The notes: a model not told the origin generated them from the sequence alone. DNA of 64,000 bases from Armatimonadota bacterium (GCA_037141835.1 JBAXBU010000007.1:365-64364); one strand, 5' to 3'. Shown: positions 54,615 to 63,228, counted from the stretch's first letter. A program made the numbers and translations.

Positions 54615-55526
54615 TTGAATATTAGTGATCGGTCTCAAGGTTTAGAAAACCCCTTGACAAAAGTTTCAAACAAGGCGCGATTTGTGCCCTTGTTTCTAGG
54701 TGCCATCTTCATAGTTGGAGTAGGTATTGCAACGGCTTCTACCGGAATATCTCCGCAGCAAGCTACCCCTCCCCAGTCCCCACCAAAGGCAGAAGGAACC
54801 CAAGCGCAAGTTAAGCCATTAGAAGTACCAAAAATAGTCCCAATCAAAAGTGAAGATGTTCAAGGAATAACCTTTGCTGATAAACCAGGGGTCACCTATG
54901 TTCTTGCAAGGACATTGTCTGAGCGCCTTTCGCTCGATTTGGACTTAGACAAAAACGAAAAAGTCATGACCATTGGTGACCAAACATTCACTGGCTTTCG
55001 TCGACTTTTTAATGGCAGCATCATTATTCCAATCCGTGACATTGAAAAGCTCGATGGAACACTTGAGCCAACCAAAGAAGATGGCCGAGTGACTATCCAG
55101 CACTACGCAAATATTTTTGATGTAGTAATCGGCAAAAAACGAATCGAAGTCGACAAGGCCGCCCAAGAGCTGACCGCCTTTCAGGGTGACATTGTTGTCC
55201 TTAAGTCAAATGTGAGTACCGGTCGGCCAGGTCACAATACGCCAAATGGTGATTTCAAAACTGGACCAAAAGAAAGGATGCATTATTCCCGCAAATACAA
55301 CAATGCGGAGATGCCTTACGCAGTTCAAGTCAATGGCGATGTATTCTTTCATGGCTACCCTTCAGTGCCAAGTTATCCGGCGTCTCACGGCTGCATCCGA
55401 ATGCCGTTAGGTAGAAATGGAGCCGCTAAGTACCTATTTGGATGGGTTGAGCGTGGAGTTGATGTAAAGATTTTTGGAGTCTATAGTTGGGAATCTCGCC
55501 GCACTAAGAAAAGGCGAAACGGTTAG
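54615..55526 (+). CDS. L,D-transpeptidase (YkuD) family protein
   Basis: FFHGYPSVPSYPASHGCIRM catalytic motif; N-terminal TM. Confidence 0.9.
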   Translation: MNISDRSQGLENPLTKVSNKARFVPLFLGAIFIVGVGIATASTGISPQQATPPQSPPKAEGTQAQVKPLEVPKIVPIKSEDVQGITFADKPGVTYVLARTLSERLSLDLDLDKNEKVMTIGDQTFTGFRRLFNGSIIIPIRDIEKLDGTLEPTKEDGRVTIQHYANIFDVVIGKKRIEVDKAAQELTAFQGDIVVLKSNVSTGRPGHNTPNGDFKTGPKERMHYSRKYNNAEMPYAVQVNGDVFFHGYPSVPSYPASHGCIRMPLGRNGAAKYLFGWVERGVDVKIFGVYSWESRRTKKRRNG

Positions 55527-55528
55527 CC

Positions 55529-55565
55529 AAAAAAAAAGAGCTTCCAAGTTGGAAGCTCTTTTTTT
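55529..55565. terminator. Bidirectional terminator
   Basis: A-run, GAGCTTCC-AAGTT-GGAAGCTC, T-run. Confidence 0.88.
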
Positions 55566-55582
55566 GTTAGTCGGGTTTGCGC

Positions 55583-57493
55583 CTATCCCGGAGTCAAGGT
55601 AACTTGATCGAACTTGAGTGTTGTCGGTGTGGCAATTTTGTTTGACCTCGATGGATTGACTGCTCTCACCAAGACTTTTACGGCTCCACTTGGTCCAATA
55701 TAGGCGGTTGCATTGGGAACTTGAAAGTTTGTTATTTTGTCAGTGCCAGACTGAGAAACGCTTCCAAAGTTAACATACTTGCCAGTGCTGTAATTGTAGA
55801 CAAAGTACAAGGCTTGAACAAGTTCAGTAGTACTCGTCTCAAAAGAGAACTGAAGAGTTGAAGCTGTTAAATCCGGTACTGTGAAAGTTGCAAATCCAGA
55901 AGCAACATGACCGGTACCAGCCAAAAGGATTGAGTTAACTTTGAAGTAGGAATCATCAGAGCTAATGACGTTCGCAAGGCCACCCACGCTACTGACGCCT
56001 TCAAACATCCCGATTGCATCCGGCTTTAGCGCGTCTTTTGCAATGGTCACATTGACTGGCAAAGAAGGAATGCCGTTAGCTACAACTTCCAGTGTCGCTG
56101 GTCCGGTTTCAGCTAACAACGGAACGTCAATGTTTGTTGAAACCACCAATGGGCCGGTTGCGACACCCATCGAACTATGTCCAGATGTTCGGAAGTATGT
56201 GACATGTTTTGCTCCAGTCTTATACGTGATCCTGACAAGCGGGTAGTTTGTTGCGTTCGTGCTATCGTCACCATAAAAACTGTTCTGAGAAAGACCATTT
56301 AACTGTCGCCCTTTGAGTACAGCCGATTTGCCAAGAATCAATATCGATGGAACTGAGGTGATCGTTGGTCTCCAAGAATTTTGGAACGTTCCGGCATAGT
56401 CATAAACTTCAACGTTTGAGCTAAAGTTTGTGTAAAGTGCTTGTCCCGTTGGAAGCATAAGGAAGTTGCCAGTAAAGCAAGGATGAGCGCCTCCAGTTGT
56501 TGGCGTTGGTGCTGGAACAAAGGCTCCGGTACCATCAAATTCAAAGAAGTTCGTCGGACTTGCAAAGACGCCAGGGCTTGCACCAAACAGTACGTGTCCA
56601 TTCGGCAATAAGCAAGCTGGAGCATCGGCTAAACCTAACTGTCCACCAATATTCGGAAGATCAGGAAGTGCAGCCCATGAACCGGTATCCAAGAGATTCG
56701 CTCCCGGGGTGTACATTGCATTGTGTCCAATAGCTCCAATCGCAAGAACCTTGCAAGTTGGAAGTAATACCAAAGGGCCAATTTCTTCCGAACCAGCGTC
56801 AGTTAAGAAGTCTGGTGTTGCCCCGGCAGATATCCATTTTCCTAGGGTTGGAAGATATCGCTCAGTGCCAGGTGCTGCTTCAGCGTCTGGACATAAAATT
56901 GAGCCATCTGGCATCAGTGTCCAGCCCTCTTCATCATGTCGATCTGCTTTACCGACATTGCTCATCGGGGTCCAAGTAAGAGTAGAAGCATTCAGTGCTG
57001 CCATTCTTGTATCGAACGGCATTGCAAGGGCAAATGTACCATCAGGCAGAACGGTACATTGAGCGTCGCCAATGTTGTTCCAACCTGTCGGTGCAGACAT
57101 GGATGTCCATTTATTCTTGATTGGATCGTAAATCGCACCTTTGTTGGTCCAAACAGCAGGTCCCAAATTGTATTCGCCACCCATTACGAGCAATCGTCCG
57201 TCCTTCAAAACCGCTGATGCAAAATAGAGGGGACCATAGTCTGCAGCCATACTTGCTGCTTTTTTCCAAGTCCCATTCACATAACTTCCTTTATTGTTGG
57301 GTGTCAACCGATACCAATCTGGCGACATGATGTCGTGAACCATAACTGTCCCATCGGTAAGAAGGATTGGCTCGCCAGCTTGTTGTGGACCGCCAGTCGC
57401 AACTATTTTTGTCCAGCTTTGTGCTCCAGAGACGGCGCTTAGCGCTAACGTCGCAAGGCAGGCCATTGACGACCAACTTTTCAGTGTTTTCAT
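55583..57493 (-). CDS. Secreted Kelch-like beta-propeller protein with Ig-like and C-terminal shared domain
   Basis: Signal peptide; repeats LLTDGTVM, VLKDGRLL, VLPDGTF, LMPDGSIL, LLPNGHVL, MLPTGQAL. Confidence 0.8.
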   Translation of the reverse strand: MKTLKSWSSMACLATLALSAVSGAQSWTKIVATGGPQQAGEPILLTDGTVMVHDIMSPDWYRLTPNNKGSYVNGTWKKAASMAADYGPLYFASAVLKDGRLLVMGGEYNLGPAVWTNKGAIYDPIKNKWTSMSAPTGWNNIGDAQCTVLPDGTFALAMPFDTRMAALNASTLTWTPMSNVGKADRHDEEGWTLMPDGSILCPDAEAAPGTERYLPTLGKWISAGATPDFLTDAGSEEIGPLVLLPTCKVLAIGAIGHNAMYTPGANLLDTGSWAALPDLPNIGGQLGLADAPACLLPNGHVLFGASPGVFASPTNFFEFDGTGAFVPAPTPTTGGAHPCFTGNFLMLPTGQALYTNFSSNVEVYDYAGTFQNSWRPTITSVPSILILGKSAVLKGRQLNGLSQNSFYGDDSTNATNYPLVRITYKTGAKHVTYFRTSGHSSMGVATGPLVVSTNIDVPLLAETGPATLEVVANGIPSLPVNVTIAKDALKPDAIGMFEGVSSVGGLANVISSDDSYFKVNSILLAGTGHVASGFATFTVPDLTASTLQFSFETSTTELVQALYFVYNYSTGKYVNFGSVSQSGTDKITNFQVPNATAYIGPSGAVKVLVRAVNPSRSNKIATPTTLKFDQVTLTPG

Positions 57494-57656
57494 TTGTGTG
57501 TGTCCCTTTATACCGAAAGGCTATATAAATACTAAATCCGTTCAGAAAATCAACGACTAAAGTACGGACGTATTTTTCCCAACGTTACCCACTTTGCCTG
57601 GGAAACACATGTACTAATCGTATAAATGCCATAAGAATTGATGGCAAGCCGGTGAC

Positions 57657-57688
57657 AAAAAAAGAGACCGTGCCAAATCGGCACGGTC
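57657..57688 (-). terminator. Rho-independent terminator of 57708-59711
   Basis: GACCGTGCC-AAATC-GGCACGGTC with an A-run on + (U-run on -). Confidence 0.85.
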
Positions 57689-57707
57689 CATTTCCCTTTA
57701 ACTGAAC

Positions 57708-59711
57708 CTAGTTTACGACTTCAGCCGCGCCTAATGTTGCTTGATCAGTCTTGAAAGTGAATACCGCTGGAGCGGCACCAGAACGAGTAGGATTTACTCC
57801 TCTTACGATCATCGAGACTTGCTTTGTACTGCTGACGTATAGAGCAATTTGAGCTGGCGTTAATTCCAGTACTTTCGATACACCTGTTGGAGACAATCCA
57901 AACGTCGTTACTTGCTCATAGACTCCTTTCTGCACGTTTAGCAAAGAAACAAGGGCCGAAGAGCCCGTTGCTCCTGATGCTTTGAGAAAGACTCGAAGGG
58001 TGTCTACTCCGCCGCTAAAAGGAATGGTGTAAACACTATTGAATCCAGCGACTTGACCCAATCCACTTACTGATTTGGATTGAATGTCAAGAGTGACCGA
58101 GTCCGGGCTGTACAAGCTGGTCTTGTTTCCAGACATCAAGGTACCGGCGACAGTGGTTACTCCCGAAGGAAGTACCTGGAGAAGGTCTGTGTCGGGCAAG
58201 CTGACCTTGAAACTCTTAATAAAGGTTTGCCATCTGCCATTTGTTCCGGCTCCCATACCAACAGCCCAAAATGTGCTTGAGTCATTAGGATCAAGCTCAA
58301 GATCAAAATAGTCACCCCATCGTGAGGAGAAGCCATTGTAGGTTCCAGATAGAGAATTCTCCAAAACAATTGGAGCACCCATTGTCCCTGGTGGATCTGA
58401 TGGTCGTCTTCCACTGGCCATTACTTTGCCAGGAGTCGATGAGCCAATCATCGAGAACGTCATTCCGATTCCTCCTTTCTTATCGATTTGGACAGCTGGG
58501 AAGGAATATCCATGACCGGTAGGCGGATTAACTTGTCCTGATTGGAATAGAGTCGGAGTGCCCGAAACTGGCCATCCGTTGGTTTTGAAGTCATACCAAC
58601 GAGCCGCTGGCCGCCGATCTGAACCCGAAACTGCTACGGAGTGGCTAGATAGAATTCGACCGTTCCATGACGTAGCTACCAGTTGACGTGGATCGTTTGT
58701 TTGCACCTGAACACCACCCGGACCAGTGATAAATCCTTGATCATTGTCCCATTTTGGTACAGCAACAGAAGCCTGCGTAACGTTAAACGACGAGCCAGAC
58801 TTGGTTATGGCTGTCAGAGTCATCGACGTCTGAGATTCGGTATTAACCGCATAGACAGCTGGCGTCGTAGCGTCCTCTGTCTTAGCAAGTTGGACAGTAA
58901 ACCCGCCACTCTTGAATTTGAATGGTGTTGCCGTTCCGCCATACAGGGTTGCTTTGTCAAACGCCATGATTTGAACACCATTGAATCCAGAACTGCCGGT
59001 CATGGCAAACATGTTCCCGGTCATACAAATCATATCTTTGTTGTAACCCAAGCCCGGATAGTCTAGCCAGTAGCTGTTTGATCCTTCAGTTTGCTTGTTG
59101 TCAACTTTATAAAGTTTCCAAGTTCCGGTTGGATCAGAAGTGTTTGAAACCGCAATCAGGAAGCTCGATGTCCCGTTGGTTGCTTCGTCTTTGAGCCCCA
59201 AATCAAGAACAACGAATCTCTTTGCAATTTGGTCGTAGATGACTTTGGGATCGAAATCAAATGCTTCTGGAGATATCGATTGAAAGAACTGCTGTCCTGG
59301 TTGCTCAAAGAGTTTTGTGCCAGTCTTAGTAAAGAAGGCGATGTTGGAATTAACGACTTCTACAATATGATTTGGGCCAACAGCGAGATCTGGATCGGGT
59401 GGTTCAAGACTTGTTGCCGAAATCCCAGGAAATCTGGAATTGTTTCCAAGGTTTATTCTGGATTCTGTGAGCGTTCCACCTGCAATCAGGTTGTTCAATT
59501 GCCCAAGAGGATAATTAAACTTCAATTCGTGATCCTTTTCCATAACATTTGGACGAAATGTTGTGTTGATTTGAGGATTGAATTTCTTAGTGTCGAGGGT
59601 AACGCCTAGGACCGATTTTCCGATTCCCATTGACTTGATCTGCCCAAAGGAAACAGCCGAAACGGCACTAACCAAAAGTACAGACCCAAGAGTTTTAAGC
59701 AATTTGTTCAT
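57708..59711 (-). CDS. Secreted 667-aa protein of the PPDP..GPNH family with shared C-terminal domain
   Basis: Signal peptide MNKLLKTLG; PPDPDLAVGPNHIVEVVN, FDPKVIYD, DYP, RWGDY motifs; function unknown. Confidence 0.8.
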   Translation of the reverse strand: MNKLLKTLGSVLLVSAVSAVSFGQIKSMGIGKSVLGVTLDTKKFNPQINTTFRPNVMEKDHELKFNYPLGQLNNLIAGGTLTESRINLGNNSRFPGISATSLEPPDPDLAVGPNHIVEVVNSNIAFFTKTGTKLFEQPGQQFFQSISPEAFDFDPKVIYDQIAKRFVVLDLGLKDEATNGTSSFLIAVSNTSDPTGTWKLYKVDNKQTEGSNSYWLDYPGLGYNKDMICMTGNMFAMTGSSGFNGVQIMAFDKATLYGGTATPFKFKSGGFTVQLAKTEDATTPAVYAVNTESQTSMTLTAITKSGSSFNVTQASVAVPKWDNDQGFITGPGGVQVQTNDPRQLVATSWNGRILSSHSVAVSGSDRRPAARWYDFKTNGWPVSGTPTLFQSGQVNPPTGHGYSFPAVQIDKKGGIGMTFSMIGSSTPGKVMASGRRPSDPPGTMGAPIVLENSLSGTYNGFSSRWGDYFDLELDPNDSSTFWAVGMGAGTNGRWQTFIKSFKVSLPDTDLLQVLPSGVTTVAGTLMSGNKTSLYSPDSVTLDIQSKSVSGLGQVAGFNSVYTIPFSGGVDTLRVFLKASGATGSSALVSLLNVQKGVYEQVTTFGLSPTGVSKVLELTPAQIALYVSSTKQVSMIVRGVNPTRSGAAPAVFTFKTDQATLGAAEVVN

Positions 59712-59849
59712 GATTTGGCTCGCTCTGGAACTCAAATTATATCTGGAATGGCAACGAATTTTGACGAGATTCCTCAAAGACACTTAAATGGCGTGAAATG
59801 CCATCGAACTTGAAGGTGGTATTAACGGCTTTTGAGCATGATAAGAAAC

Positions 59850-59885
59850 AAAAAAGACCGTGCCAATTTGGCACGGTCTCTTTTT
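59850..59885 (-). terminator. Rho-independent terminator of 59898-61901 (near copy of 57657-57688)
   Basis: AGACCGTGCCAA-T-TTGGCACGGTCT flanked by A and T runs. Confidence 0.85.
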
Positions 59886-59897
59886 CATGAATAGAAC

Positions 59898-61901
59898 TTA
59901 GTTTACGACTTCAGCCGCACCAAGGGTTGCTTGATCGGTCTTAAAGGTAAACACTGTCGGAGCAGCACCTGGTCGAGTTGGACTCACAGCTCTTACAATC
60001 ATTGATACTTGCTTTGTACTGCTTACGTACAGAGCAATTTGAGCAGGTGTGAGTTCAAGAGCTTTCGAAGCACCGGATGGCGTCAAGCCAAAGGTTGTTA
60101 CTTGCTCATAGACTCCCTTCTGAACATTGAGCAATGAAACAAGTGCGGAGGAACCAGTTGGTCCCGAAGCAGTAACGAAGGCTCGCAGGGTATCAACACC
60201 ACCGCTGAACGGAAGCGTATAAACGCTATTGAATCCACCAACTTGTCCCAAACCGCTAACCGCCTTTGATTGAATGTTCAAGGTGACTGCATCTTGGCTG
60301 AATAGGCTGTTCTTGTTGCCAGACAACAAGGTTCCTGCAACTGTAGTAACTCCAGACGGCATTACTTGAATAAGTTCAGAATCAGGCAAGCTGACCTTAA
60401 AGTTCTTCATGTAGGTTTGCCATCGACCGTTACTTCCTGCACCCATACCAACGGCCCAGAAAGTACTGGAATCATTTGGATCAAGTTCCACGTCGAAATA
60501 GTCACCCCATCGAGTCGAGAAGCCGTTGTATGTTCCTGAATTGGAATTCTCCAAAACAATAGGAGAACCCATGGTTCCCGGTGGATCACTTGGTCTTCGA
60601 CCTGTACCCATTACCTTTCCTGGAGTCGTTGTACCGATCATTGAGAAGGTCATGCCGATGCCGAACTTCTTGTCAATGTTAATCGCAGGGAATGAGTAGC
60701 CATGTCCAGCTGGTGGATTAACTTGACCAGATTGGAAAAGAGTTGGAGTGCCGGAAACAGGCCATCCATTAGTCTTAATGTCGTACCATCGAGCTGCTGG
60801 TCGCAAATCTGAGTTTGAAACTGCTACGTGATGGCTGGTAACGATTCGACCGTTGTACGATGAAGCAACAAGCAGTCTTGGGTCGTTCGTTTGAACGACA
60901 ACGTTACCTGGGCCAACAAGGAATCCTTGATCATATTCCCATTGAGGAACAGGAACAGAAGCCTGTGTTGTAGTTATTGCTGATCCAGATTTTGAGAGCG
61001 CAGTGAGCAGAATTGAATTTTGTGACTCAGCTTCAATCGCATAAACAGCCGGATTTGTTCCGTCAAGCGTCTTCGTGAATTGGGTCGTACCATTGTTAGG
61101 CATTGAGAACGAAGTTGGCGTTGCGGTTCCACCATAAAGTGTTGCCTTGTTGAAAGCAACGAGCTGAACACCGTTGTATCCAGTGCTTCCGTCCATTGCA
61201 AACATGTTTCCGGCCATACAAATGAGATCCTTGTTGTAGCCAAAACCAGGGTAGTCCAACCAGTATGTGTTTGATCCAACTGTTTGGAGGTTACTGACCT
61301 TGTATTGCTTCCAAGTTCCAGTAGGGTCAGATGTGTTTGAAACGCCAATAAGGAAGTCAGAGATTCCTCCAGATGTTGCAAACTTGAGACTCAAAATGAT
61401 GACAACCCATCTCTTAGCTACTTGATCATAAATAACTTTAGGATCAGACTCAAAAGGCTCAGGTGAAACCGAACTGAACCATTGGTCAAGAGGCTGTTCA
61501 AAAAGCTTGGTTCCTGTTTTAGTGAAGAAAGCAATTGAGGTATTTACGACTTCGACAATGTGGTTTGGTCCGACTCCGAGGTCTGGATCAGGTGGCTCAG
61601 CACCAGTGGAACCCATTCCTTTAAACAAAGGACTTGTCAAGGAAATTCGGGTACCCGAAAGGGTGCCACCGGCAATAAGGTTGCTGGGTTGACCAAGGGG
61701 GCGCCGTCGATCCAGTTCATGCTCGCGCTCCATCTGTGTTGCCCGAAAAGTTGTGTTAATTTGGGGTTGGAATGATTTCATGTCAACGGTCTTGCCGACA
61801 TAGGATTTTCCAACACCCATTGGTATGATCTGACCGAAGGAAACTGCCGATACAGCAGCTACCAAAAGTACAGCCCCAAGGGTTTTCAGTGATTTATTCA
61901 T
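59898..61901 (-). CDS. Secreted 667-aa paralog of 57708-59711
   Basis: Same length and motifs; C-terminal TFKTDQATLGAAEVVN identical. Confidence 0.8.
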   Translation of the reverse strand: MNKSLKTLGAVLLVAAVSAVSFGQIIPMGVGKSYVGKTVDMKSFQPQINTTFRATQMEREHELDRRRPLGQPSNLIAGGTLSGTRISLTSPLFKGMGSTGAEPPDPDLGVGPNHIVEVVNTSIAFFTKTGTKLFEQPLDQWFSSVSPEPFESDPKVIYDQVAKRWVVIILSLKFATSGGISDFLIGVSNTSDPTGTWKQYKVSNLQTVGSNTYWLDYPGFGYNKDLICMAGNMFAMDGSTGYNGVQLVAFNKATLYGGTATPTSFSMPNNGTTQFTKTLDGTNPAVYAIEAESQNSILLTALSKSGSAITTTQASVPVPQWEYDQGFLVGPGNVVVQTNDPRLLVASSYNGRIVTSHHVAVSNSDLRPAARWYDIKTNGWPVSGTPTLFQSGQVNPPAGHGYSFPAINIDKKFGIGMTFSMIGTTTPGKVMGTGRRPSDPPGTMGSPIVLENSNSGTYNGFSTRWGDYFDVELDPNDSSTFWAVGMGAGSNGRWQTYMKNFKVSLPDSELIQVMPSGVTTVAGTLLSGNKNSLFSQDAVTLNIQSKAVSGLGQVGGFNSVYTLPFSGGVDTLRAFVTASGPTGSSALVSLLNVQKGVYEQVTTFGLTPSGASKALELTPAQIALYVSSTKQVSMIVRAVSPTRPGAAPTVFTFKTDQATLGAAEVVN

Positions 61902-62010
61902 GATTCAGCTCGCGCTAATACCTGAATTATAACAGAATCCTGGGTGAAACATGCGAAGTTTGAACCATGGGCAAACTTTCTCCTGTTAATTCGACTTGTA
62001 TAATAGTCTC

Positions 62011-63228
62011 ATGCTTCGTCGAGTTCGCGAAATCTGCTTTATTTCATTGGCTATCTCACTGATTTCTTGCGGTGGATCAGGGCCATCTGTTCCTCCTGGT
62101 CCGGCAATTCATGGACAAGTCGTTGCAAGGGGTTTGTCGGCTCCGATGCTCTATGTAGCTGCCCCTGGAGAACCGACTAAGGCATACGTAATCGAGCGTT
62201 CCGGTAAGGTCAAACTACTGGTAAACGACGTCTTGCAATCAACCGATGTACTGGACATTACGGGCACGGTTGTGACCGCCGGAGAATGCGGACTGTTGGG
62301 TATTGCATTCGATCCCAACTACGCCACTAACAGGCATGTTTTCCTGCACTACAATGCCGGAAGTCCAATTGAGACTCGAATCGTCCGTTACACCATGAAT
62401 CCTGGCGGCACCTCGCTTGGAAGTCCGTTCCCGATCTTCTCTTTCCAGCAAACTTCAGAGACTAACCATAAGGGAGGAGCCATCAATTTTGGAACTGGTG
62501 GATACCTATTTATGATGACCGGCGACGGGGGCGGGGGCAACGATCCAAATAACTATGCCCAAACACCAAATTCGTTCTTTGGCAAAATTCTACGCATAGA
62601 TGTTAACACCGATGATTTTCCAAGCGATTCTAACCAGAATTACGGAATCCCTTCATCAAACCCGTGGGTCGGTGTCAGCGGAGTGAATCCGGAGATTTGG
62701 GGTTTTGGAATGAGGAATCCATTCCGGTGGTCAATAGATCCTGTTACTGGAGGATTGCTTATCGCAGATGTTGGGCAAGACGCGTATGAAGAATTGAATT
62801 ATGAGCCTGCATTTACTGGAATGAGGAACTATGGTTGGAATATGCGAGAAGCTCTCCATGCTTCTGGGAACACAGGTCCCGCATTTTTCACCCCGCTAAC
62901 GAACCCAATTCTTGAATACAGTCATGGATTTGGAGAGACAATTATTGGTGGATTTATCTATCGAGGAACGGCTCTTGATTCATCATTTCAAGGCAAGTAC
63001 TTCTTTGCTGACTACATCAGCGCAAAGATCGCTTCCATTCCTTTTTCTTTAACCGGTGCAGAAGCAAATTCGGTGGCTCAAGGCTCAATTGCCAATCATA
63101 CGTCCGCAATCAACATTAGTTTGGCTGGAGACGCGATTTCAGGGCCGGTATCGGTGACTCCCGATGCCAATGGCGAAATTATGATTTGTGATCTCAACAA
63201 CGGAACATTGATCCGCCTAATTCCTTAA
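62011..63228 (+). CDS. PQQ-dependent sugar dehydrogenase (glucose/sorbosone dehydrogenase) family lipoprotein
   Basis: Lipobox LISC; GECGLLGIAFDP, NHKGGAINFG, GKILRID, GMRNPFR, DVGQDAYEE. Confidence 0.9.
   Translation: MLRRVREICFISLAISLISCGGSGPSVPPGPAIHGQVVARGLSAPMLYVAAPGEPTKAYVIERSGKVKLLVNDVLQSTDVLDITGTVVTAGECGLLGIAFDPNYATNRHVFLHYNAGSPIETRIVRYTMNPGGTSLGSPFPIFSFQQTSETNHKGGAINFGTGGYLFMMTGDGGGGNDPNNYAQTPNSFFGKILRIDVNTDDFPSDSNQNYGIPSSNPWVGVSGVNPEIWGFGMRNPFRWSIDPVTGGLLIADVGQDAYEELNYEPAFTGMRNYGWNMREALHASGNTGPAFFTPLTNPILEYSHGFGETIIGGFIYRGTALDSSFQGKYFFADYISAKIASIPFSLTGAEANSVAQGSIANHTSAINISLAGDAISGPVSVTPDANGEIMICDLNNGTLIRLIP

Follow-up and report, generated by a model that had tools for sequence, protein, structure and literature searches.

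Three adjacent genes in a 64,000-nucleotide stretch of DNA from an Armatimonadota bacterium (GCA_037141835.1, JBAXBU010000007.1:365-64364; the whole stretch is called the window here) raise the question of what purpose is served by a C-terminal domain that is common to secreted proteins with unrelated N-terminal bodies. The genes occupy positions 55583-61901 and encode a Kelch-like protein and two members of a family termed 'PPDP'; their common end of about 145 residues, referred to below as the tail, had been proposed in an earlier note on the sequence to be a lineage-specific sorting or anchoring signal. The tail is a genuine and uncatalogued domain found, as the note had supposed, at the extreme C-terminus of many unrelated signal-peptide proteins of one lineage. 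Its most probable nature, in our judgment and with appreciable doubt, is that of a new sequence family with the jelly-roll fold of carbohydrate-binding modules (CBMs), by which exported enzymes would be bound or tethered. The genes and their tails are as follows.

55583..57493, minus strand: gene for a Kelch-like secreted beta-propeller protein (P0001, 636 aa), from the open reading frame (ORF), its translation and Pfam Kelch matches.
55589..56026, minus strand: jelly-roll domain at the P0001 C-terminus (about residues 490-635), from the hidden Markov model (HMM) envelope, BLASTP, AlphaFold2 and Foldseek.
57708..59711, minus strand: gene for a 'PPDP'-family secreted beta-propeller protein, copy 1 (P0002), from an ORF open to 59783, with Met25 taken as the start.
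57726..58172, minus strand: jelly-roll domain at the P0002 C-terminus (residues 538-686 of 691), from the HMM envelope.
59898..61901, minus strand: gene for a 'PPDP'-family secreted beta-propeller protein, copy 2 (P0003, 667 aa), from the ORF and 76% identity to copy 1.
59916..60362, minus strand: jelly-roll domain at the P0003 C-terminus, from the HMM envelope.

BLASTP comparison of P0001 with P0002 gives a single significant alignment, between residues 491-633 and 539-684 (27% identity, E=3e-8), and no significant similarity between the bodies. Because only the tails align significantly, the common tail is considered real, and the alignable ends and unrelated bodies described in the earlier note are confirmed for these two types. 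P0002 and P0003 are paralogues with 76% identity end to end, so that the three tails of the window stand for two independent body types. The approximate tail spans originally given (55586-56020, 57711-58170 and 59901-60365) agree with the HMM envelopes within a few codons, and the proposed consensus (G..G, S.D, G.VA, N..T..Y, Y(I/V), VR..P.R and DQ..L) agrees with the columns conserved among 143 tails, namely two glycines, S-x-D, G-Q-V-A, N-[WY]-x-T-x-x-[YW]-[DE], Y-[VI], R, P-x-R and a late D. On the 151-residue segment at 55586-56038, the conserved residues include D28, N82, an aromatic residue at 88, R125, R131 and D144. All three proteins have the signal-peptide-like N-termini that had been recognized, and none has a PEP-CTERM (PF07589) match or a hydrophobic C-terminal segment.

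Residues 89-135 of P0001 match the Pfam models Kelch_1, Kelch_6 and Kelch_2, and the protein has no sequence relative in the PDB; whole-protein scans of P0002 and P0003 returned no Pfam or NCBIfam family. The true start of P0002 is most likely Met25, at 59711, because the cluster representative P0004 (667 aa) begins at the equivalent methionine. Two other Armatimonadota metagenome-assembled genomes (MAGs; L016:3721-7919 and L015/L017) have, at 80-97% identity, both PPDP genes in tandem with the Kelch-like gene beside them, and the three-gene array is therefore not an assembly artefact.

The source genome (3.5 Mb in 226 contigs, 95.6% complete) was searched, across all six-frame ORFs, with an HMM made from the three tails. 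Two further carriers were recognized (E=2e-15 and 1.6e-12), a BNR/Asp-box propeller on contig 11 and an S8 subtilase on contig 27, and a deeper HMM revealed a sixth, more divergent carrier on contig 112 (P0265, L088:2015-3661:+; tail E=1.6e-9), which is a choice-of-anchor B protein (TIGR04312, 325.9 bits). The domain is at the C-terminus in all six. Beyond this genome, a profile was compared with 1.84 billion representative proteins and matched 492 clusters (50% identity) at E<=1e-3, 230 of them at E<=1e-10. The statistics on position and body given here start from the best 150 of the 492. The domain ended no more than 10 residues from the C-terminus in 153 of 155 proteins at first, and in 251 of 256 when PPDP homologues were added; weak matches in proteins of about 1000 residues from distant Armatimonadota families are likewise C-terminal. 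A signal-peptide-like N-terminus is present in 91 of 102 full-length representatives, and a hydrophobic 17-mer within the last 45 residues in none of 102 full-length carriers.

The bodies to which the tail is joined include the PPDP family (approximately 520 residues), S8 subtilases, S53 sedolisins, an M4-like metallopeptidase with an FTP propeptide, and propellers of the BNR, Sortilin/Vps10-like, glucose/sorbosone dehydrogenase (GSDH), Kelch and LVIVD types. S8 and S53 peptidases make up approximately a third of the top carriers (52 of the 127 representatives that could be clustered by body). Carrier genes are often neighbors of one another, as S8 pairs, as an S53-S8-S8 series, or as BNR and Sortilin-like genes together. 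No Pfam or NCBIfam model matches the tail, either within whole proteins or in isolation (five tails were scanned in Pfam at E<=10), and a literature search gave nothing specific on an Armatimonadota C-terminal domain or on the definition of 'choice-of-anchor'.

The tail is restricted in its distribution. Source names of the homologues are Fimbriimonadaceae, Fimbriimonadales or Fimbriimonas, and close copies of P0003 occur in Armatimonadota MAGs. A genome-by-genome search, which covered Armatimonadota, found the domain in 39 of 301 sampled genomes: 29 of the 31 from the window's family, both genomes from the other sampled family of the same order, and seven among the other 267. Each positive genome has one to six matches, these being match numbers in samples and not exact copy numbers; G209, a single-contig genome with the window's genus code, has at least six. 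The earlier note had looked to such a search of genome and phylum for many matches, always C-terminal and on signal-peptide proteins, and its expectation held for the placement (nearly always) and for the signal peptides but not for the number. A different arrangement is seen in P0101 (839 aa), in which three tandem, internal and divergent tail copies are followed by a Cys-rich end resembling the GC-type dockerin (NF041540, 26.9 bits against a cut-off of 29). This protein is probably from another lineage, and its GC-type dockerin suggests some reach of the tail beyond Armatimonadota.

Structure prediction places the tail among the jelly-rolls. The AlphaFold2 model (m3cbc0c5fe26a), whose input was a 45-sequence alignment built from genome-search matches, is all-beta with about eleven strands, and has a pLDDT of 97.2 and a pTM of 0.90. 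Foldseek comparison with the PDB yielded 361 matches at E<=1e-3, all of them jelly-rolls. Among the leading matches are a baseplate module of phage phi812 (TMq 0.74), several CBMs (CBM61, CBM4, CBM6, CBM29 and one from a mannanase), a module that binds hyaluronan, domain III of Cry toxins, and the MAM domains found in meprins, enteropeptidase and neuropilin; those to CBM61, CBM4, CBM6 and CBM29 have E from 2e-8 to 2e-5 and TMq of 0.42-0.55. A profile of the same 45 sequences has only one PDB sequence match, a marginal one to the CBM15 of Cellvibrio xylanase 10C (1gny; E=0.003, 20 bits, 112 of 150 positions). The approximately 145 residues of the tail, predicted to fold as a jelly-roll beta-sandwich, lie within the size range of the beta-jelly-roll CBM superfamily (about 120-160 residues), and in some members a Gly-rich linker precedes the tail. 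Like CBM15, CBM4, CBM6, CBM29 and CBM61, the tail is an all-beta domain of about 140-150 residues that is found on secreted hydrolases and swapped between bodies; it differs in having no Pfam or NCBIfam match, in its almost invariable occurrence as a single copy at the extreme C-terminus, and in having peptidases as about a third of its top carriers.

Swapping is apparent from a tree of 143 tails, in which those of different bodies are intermixed and 42 changes of body label are required (minimum 9, shuffled mean 63.5). Many branches of this short-domain tree are weak, but PPDP, S8 and S53 tails occur together in clades with good support, and on this basis the tail is taken to have been exchanged among genes. 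The nearest relative of the window's own PPDP tails is the tail of an S53 protein (P0005), with moderate support (88). Tails on the same body in different genomes average only 24% identity. Concerted evolution of tails within genomes was considered and rejected: tails on different bodies have a mean identity of 22.4% in the same genome and 20.4% in different genomes, leaving almost none of this effect.

The PPDP body appears to be a second uncatalogued family. There are 582 members at E<=1e-10, and every source name among the matches listed is 'hypothetical protein'. The AlphaFold2 model of full-length P0003 (m85fa8c269eca, pLDDT 83.6) consists of a beta-propeller and a C-terminal jelly-roll, and its Foldseek matches include the GH43 endo-arabinanase EndoMA1, trans-sialidases, and a Micromonospora sialidase with a galactose-binding CBM32. 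Invariant W-x-D-Y-P and R-W-G-D-Y motifs mark the body. The canonical Asp-box is S-x-D-x-G-x-T-W, and the bodies of P0002 and P0003 have SDPTGTW, an Asp-box-like S-x-D-x-G-x-W that is one residue shorter. The likeness to sialidases and trans-sialidases (Micromonospora viridifaciens with its CBM32, and T. cruzi with a lectin-like domain; Foldseek 2bzd, 2ber and 1ms5) lies in an Asp-box propeller followed by a C-terminal beta-sandwich; it is structural and predicted, and PPDP differs from these enzymes in having no sequence relationship to them. The PPDP body is probably a new secreted glycosidase-like family of Fimbriimonadales, with a predicted beta-propeller resembling those of sialidases and GH43 enzymes. 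The tail is present in 100 of 108 PPDP-family proteins (relatives P0157-P0264). Seven of the other eight have another all-beta end region and one ends after the body; no known sorting signal was found in these eight.

A comparison of the choice-of-anchor B proteins bears on what the C-terminal position is used for, and the NCBIfam name itself reflects bodies with alternative C-terminal anchors. In the window's order, each of the six orthologues has the tail as its terminus. A single orthologue from a different Armatimonadota family (L090:1408-3162:-) has a PEP-CTERM end instead (29.1 bits, cut-off 20.7), and four close homologues (P0355, P0371, P0377 and P0383) have a dockerin-like end in place of the tail. 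The C-terminal slot of this body is thus occupied within one phylum by three devices (tail, PEP-CTERM and dockerin-like), which amounts to a natural experiment on the slot's purpose. The three are not alike in construction. PEP-CTERM is a 24-position motif (PF07589) after which come a hydrophobic helix and then a basic cluster, an arrangement seen in the L090 orthologue, and a dockerin is a duplicated Ca-binding, EF-hand-like segment of about 60-70 residues; the tail, by contrast, is a soluble domain of 145 residues that is predicted to be all-beta. The PEP-CTERM/exosortase system is also present in the source genome itself, which has 28 PEP-CTERM matches and one exosortase, compared to six tail carriers.

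These observations may be set against the proposal that the tail is a secretion or sorting signal, to be read by an outer-membrane export system of this diderm lineage (as a type II determinant or by an undescribed translocon) and perhaps cleaved in the manner of the C-terminal domain (CTD) of type IX secretion system (T9SS) cargo. The T9SS CTD (Por_Secre_tail) is likewise a folded beta-sandwich, which varied Sec-exported proteins of a single lineage carry at their very C-terminus. The near-absolute placement of the tail on unrelated bodies with signal-peptide-like N-termini (251 of 256 and 91 of 102), its restriction to one lineage, its failure to occur with PEP-CTERM in any protein examined, and its substitution for PEP-CTERM on choice-of-anchor B orthologues all accord with a sorting function, as does the presence of 21 type II secretion genes and 19 lipopolysaccharide biosynthesis genes reported in the genome paper on Fimbriimonas ginsengisoli (PMC4072686). 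Several lines of evidence speak against it. T9SS typically serves tens of cargo proteins per genome, as opposed to the six carriers here and one to six matches elsewhere, and the tail, a jelly-roll of 145 residues, is twice the size of the 72-position T9SS CTD model. T9SS CTD models (TIGR04183 / PF18962) matched none of five tails in Pfam at E<=10, and TIGR04183 matched nothing in the whole genome; the SprA translocon was not found above cut-off in this 95.6% complete genome, where TIGR04189 has a partial match of 24.8 bits against a cut-off of 200. There is no transmembrane segment and no conserved terminal motif, the last residue being variable and the trailing extensions of 0-20 residues not conserved. 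No partner or machinery gene is common to 23 tail-gene neighborhoods, which share only a housekeeping block (release factor, DUF1573, cytochrome c and GGDEF) and common ABC ATPases. A conserved machine could hardly be expected to recognize tails that have diverged to 24% identity on the same body, and in P0101 the tail copies are internal, tandem and followed by a dockerin. The earlier note had itself named an internal position, or a CBM match with few copies, as evidence against a sorting signal, and this is largely what was found: a CBM-like jelly-roll, the marginal CBM15 match, one to six matches per genome and the internal copies of P0101. Its analogy to the machinery-read T9SS CTD or PEP-CTERM is accordingly not sustained; we do not think that any dedicated sorting machinery recognizes and processes the tail, and a sorting signal of any such kind is considered unlikely.

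Another explanation is that the tail is an intramolecular folding or stabilizing domain or a C-terminal propeptide, similar to the P-domain of kexin-type subtilases or to PPC, which maturation would require and which might later be cut off. S8 and S53 enzymes constitute about a third of the top carriers (some metallopeptidases are carriers too), and beta-sandwich extensions are common at the C-terminus of peptidases of this sort; in the full-length P0003 model, high pLDDT is maintained across the junction of body and tail. The tail is also found, however, on non-protease bodies of no fewer than six unrelated kinds (Kelch, BNR, Sortilin-like, GSDH, choice-of-anchor B and PPDP), and its exchange among bodies argues against a body-specific chaperone. 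The tail-less PPDP proteins, with a different all-beta end or with none, are also at odds with a maturation role, and the tails match neither PF01483 (P_proprotein) nor PF04151 (PPC) even at E<=10, with both absent from the top 50 Foldseek matches. Little credence is given to this explanation. Still more doubtful is a role in adhesion or assembly between proteins, comparable to that of MAM or, in function, to that of dockerin, by which enzymes would dock on a proteinaceous scaffold or oligomerize. The MAM domain of meprin and enteropeptidase is a jelly-roll on extracellular peptidases (Foldseek E 3e-7 to 2e-5), and the dockerin in place of the tail on four choice-of-anchor B homologues is in keeping with a docking function. 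MAM is nonetheless eukaryotic and internal, mediates protein-protein adhesion, and has no sequence match with the tail; moreover, the closest structural matches among small modules are carbohydrate binders, no conserved partner gene lies near the 23 loci, and tails of one genome bear no sign of co-evolution (22.4% versus 20.4% identity).

The reading preferred here, a CBM-like binding module, would make the tail an autonomous unit without catalytic function, joined at the C-terminal end to hydrolases and propellers that Fimbriimonadales-type Armatimonadota export by the Sec route. By binding a glycan or other extracellular polymer, it would hold the attached enzyme on a surface, which may belong to the producing cell, as its envelope or matrix (non-covalent anchoring), or to a particulate substrate (targeting). 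The CBM-like fold and the few copies per genome are the reasons for which a binding module is thought likelier than an export signal. The carriers are extracellular degradative enzymes (S8, S53 and M4-like peptidases; BNR, Sortilin-like, Kelch, GSDH and LVIVD propellers), and the lifestyle of the cultured relative F. ginsengisoli fits with a set of surface-held or substrate-held degradative enzymes. A number of points weigh against this reading. Structural scores to CBMs are moderate (TM-scores of 0.45-0.6) and the CBM15 sequence match is marginal; the jelly-roll fold also serves in protein-protein adhesion (MAM) and in structural roles; a near-absolute, single-copy C-terminal placement is stricter than expected of CBM families, and peptidases are not typical CBM carriers. 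Tail and PEP-CTERM never occur in the same protein among those examined, and a tail in the slot of PEP-CTERM or dockerin would fit a true sorting function too.

A narrower form of the binding module can be entertained as a tentative possibility, namely that the tail is a lineage-specific, non-covalent cell-surface anchor that keeps a small number of peptidases and propeller enzymes, once secreted, attached to glycan of the cell's own envelope. It would then do in Fimbriimonadales the job that is done elsewhere by PEP-CTERM/exosortase or dockerin, as a second and machinery-free route beside PEP-CTERM. An anchoring role is favored by the nearly invariable position of the tail, by its failure to occur together with PEP-CTERM in any protein examined and, most strongly, by the choice-of-anchor B slot, which holds PEP-CTERM or dockerin elsewhere.

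Two genes flank the cluster in the window. Adjoining it at 61996-63228 (plus strand) is a gene for a GSDH propeller that has no tail; a GSDH body elsewhere (P0104) does have one. On the other side, at 54615-55526 (plus strand), lies a gene, convergent with the Kelch-like one, for a YkuD L,D-transpeptidase that includes a weak Cu_amine_oxidN1-like region; the 3' ends of the two genes face each other across 55527-55582.

Armatimonadota is a poorly characterized phylum in which, according to a 2025 abstract (PMC12731048), only three species are formally described. Two uncatalogued families are defined by the present analysis, the PPDP propeller of approximately 520 residues and the tail itself. 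What is new is the tail family, its strict placement and its restriction to a lineage, while the fold and the design of an enzyme with a C-terminal jelly-roll are familiar; on present evidence, the tail does not reveal a new secretion system. The tail family nevertheless labels a large part of the means by which one order carries out extracellular degradation, namely its peptidases and propellers of several families. Should the target be the cell's own surface, the tail would constitute a new and simple kind of anchor that offers a handle for protein display; if it binds a substrate polymer, it would represent a new CBM family and offer a hint at the food of these bacteria.

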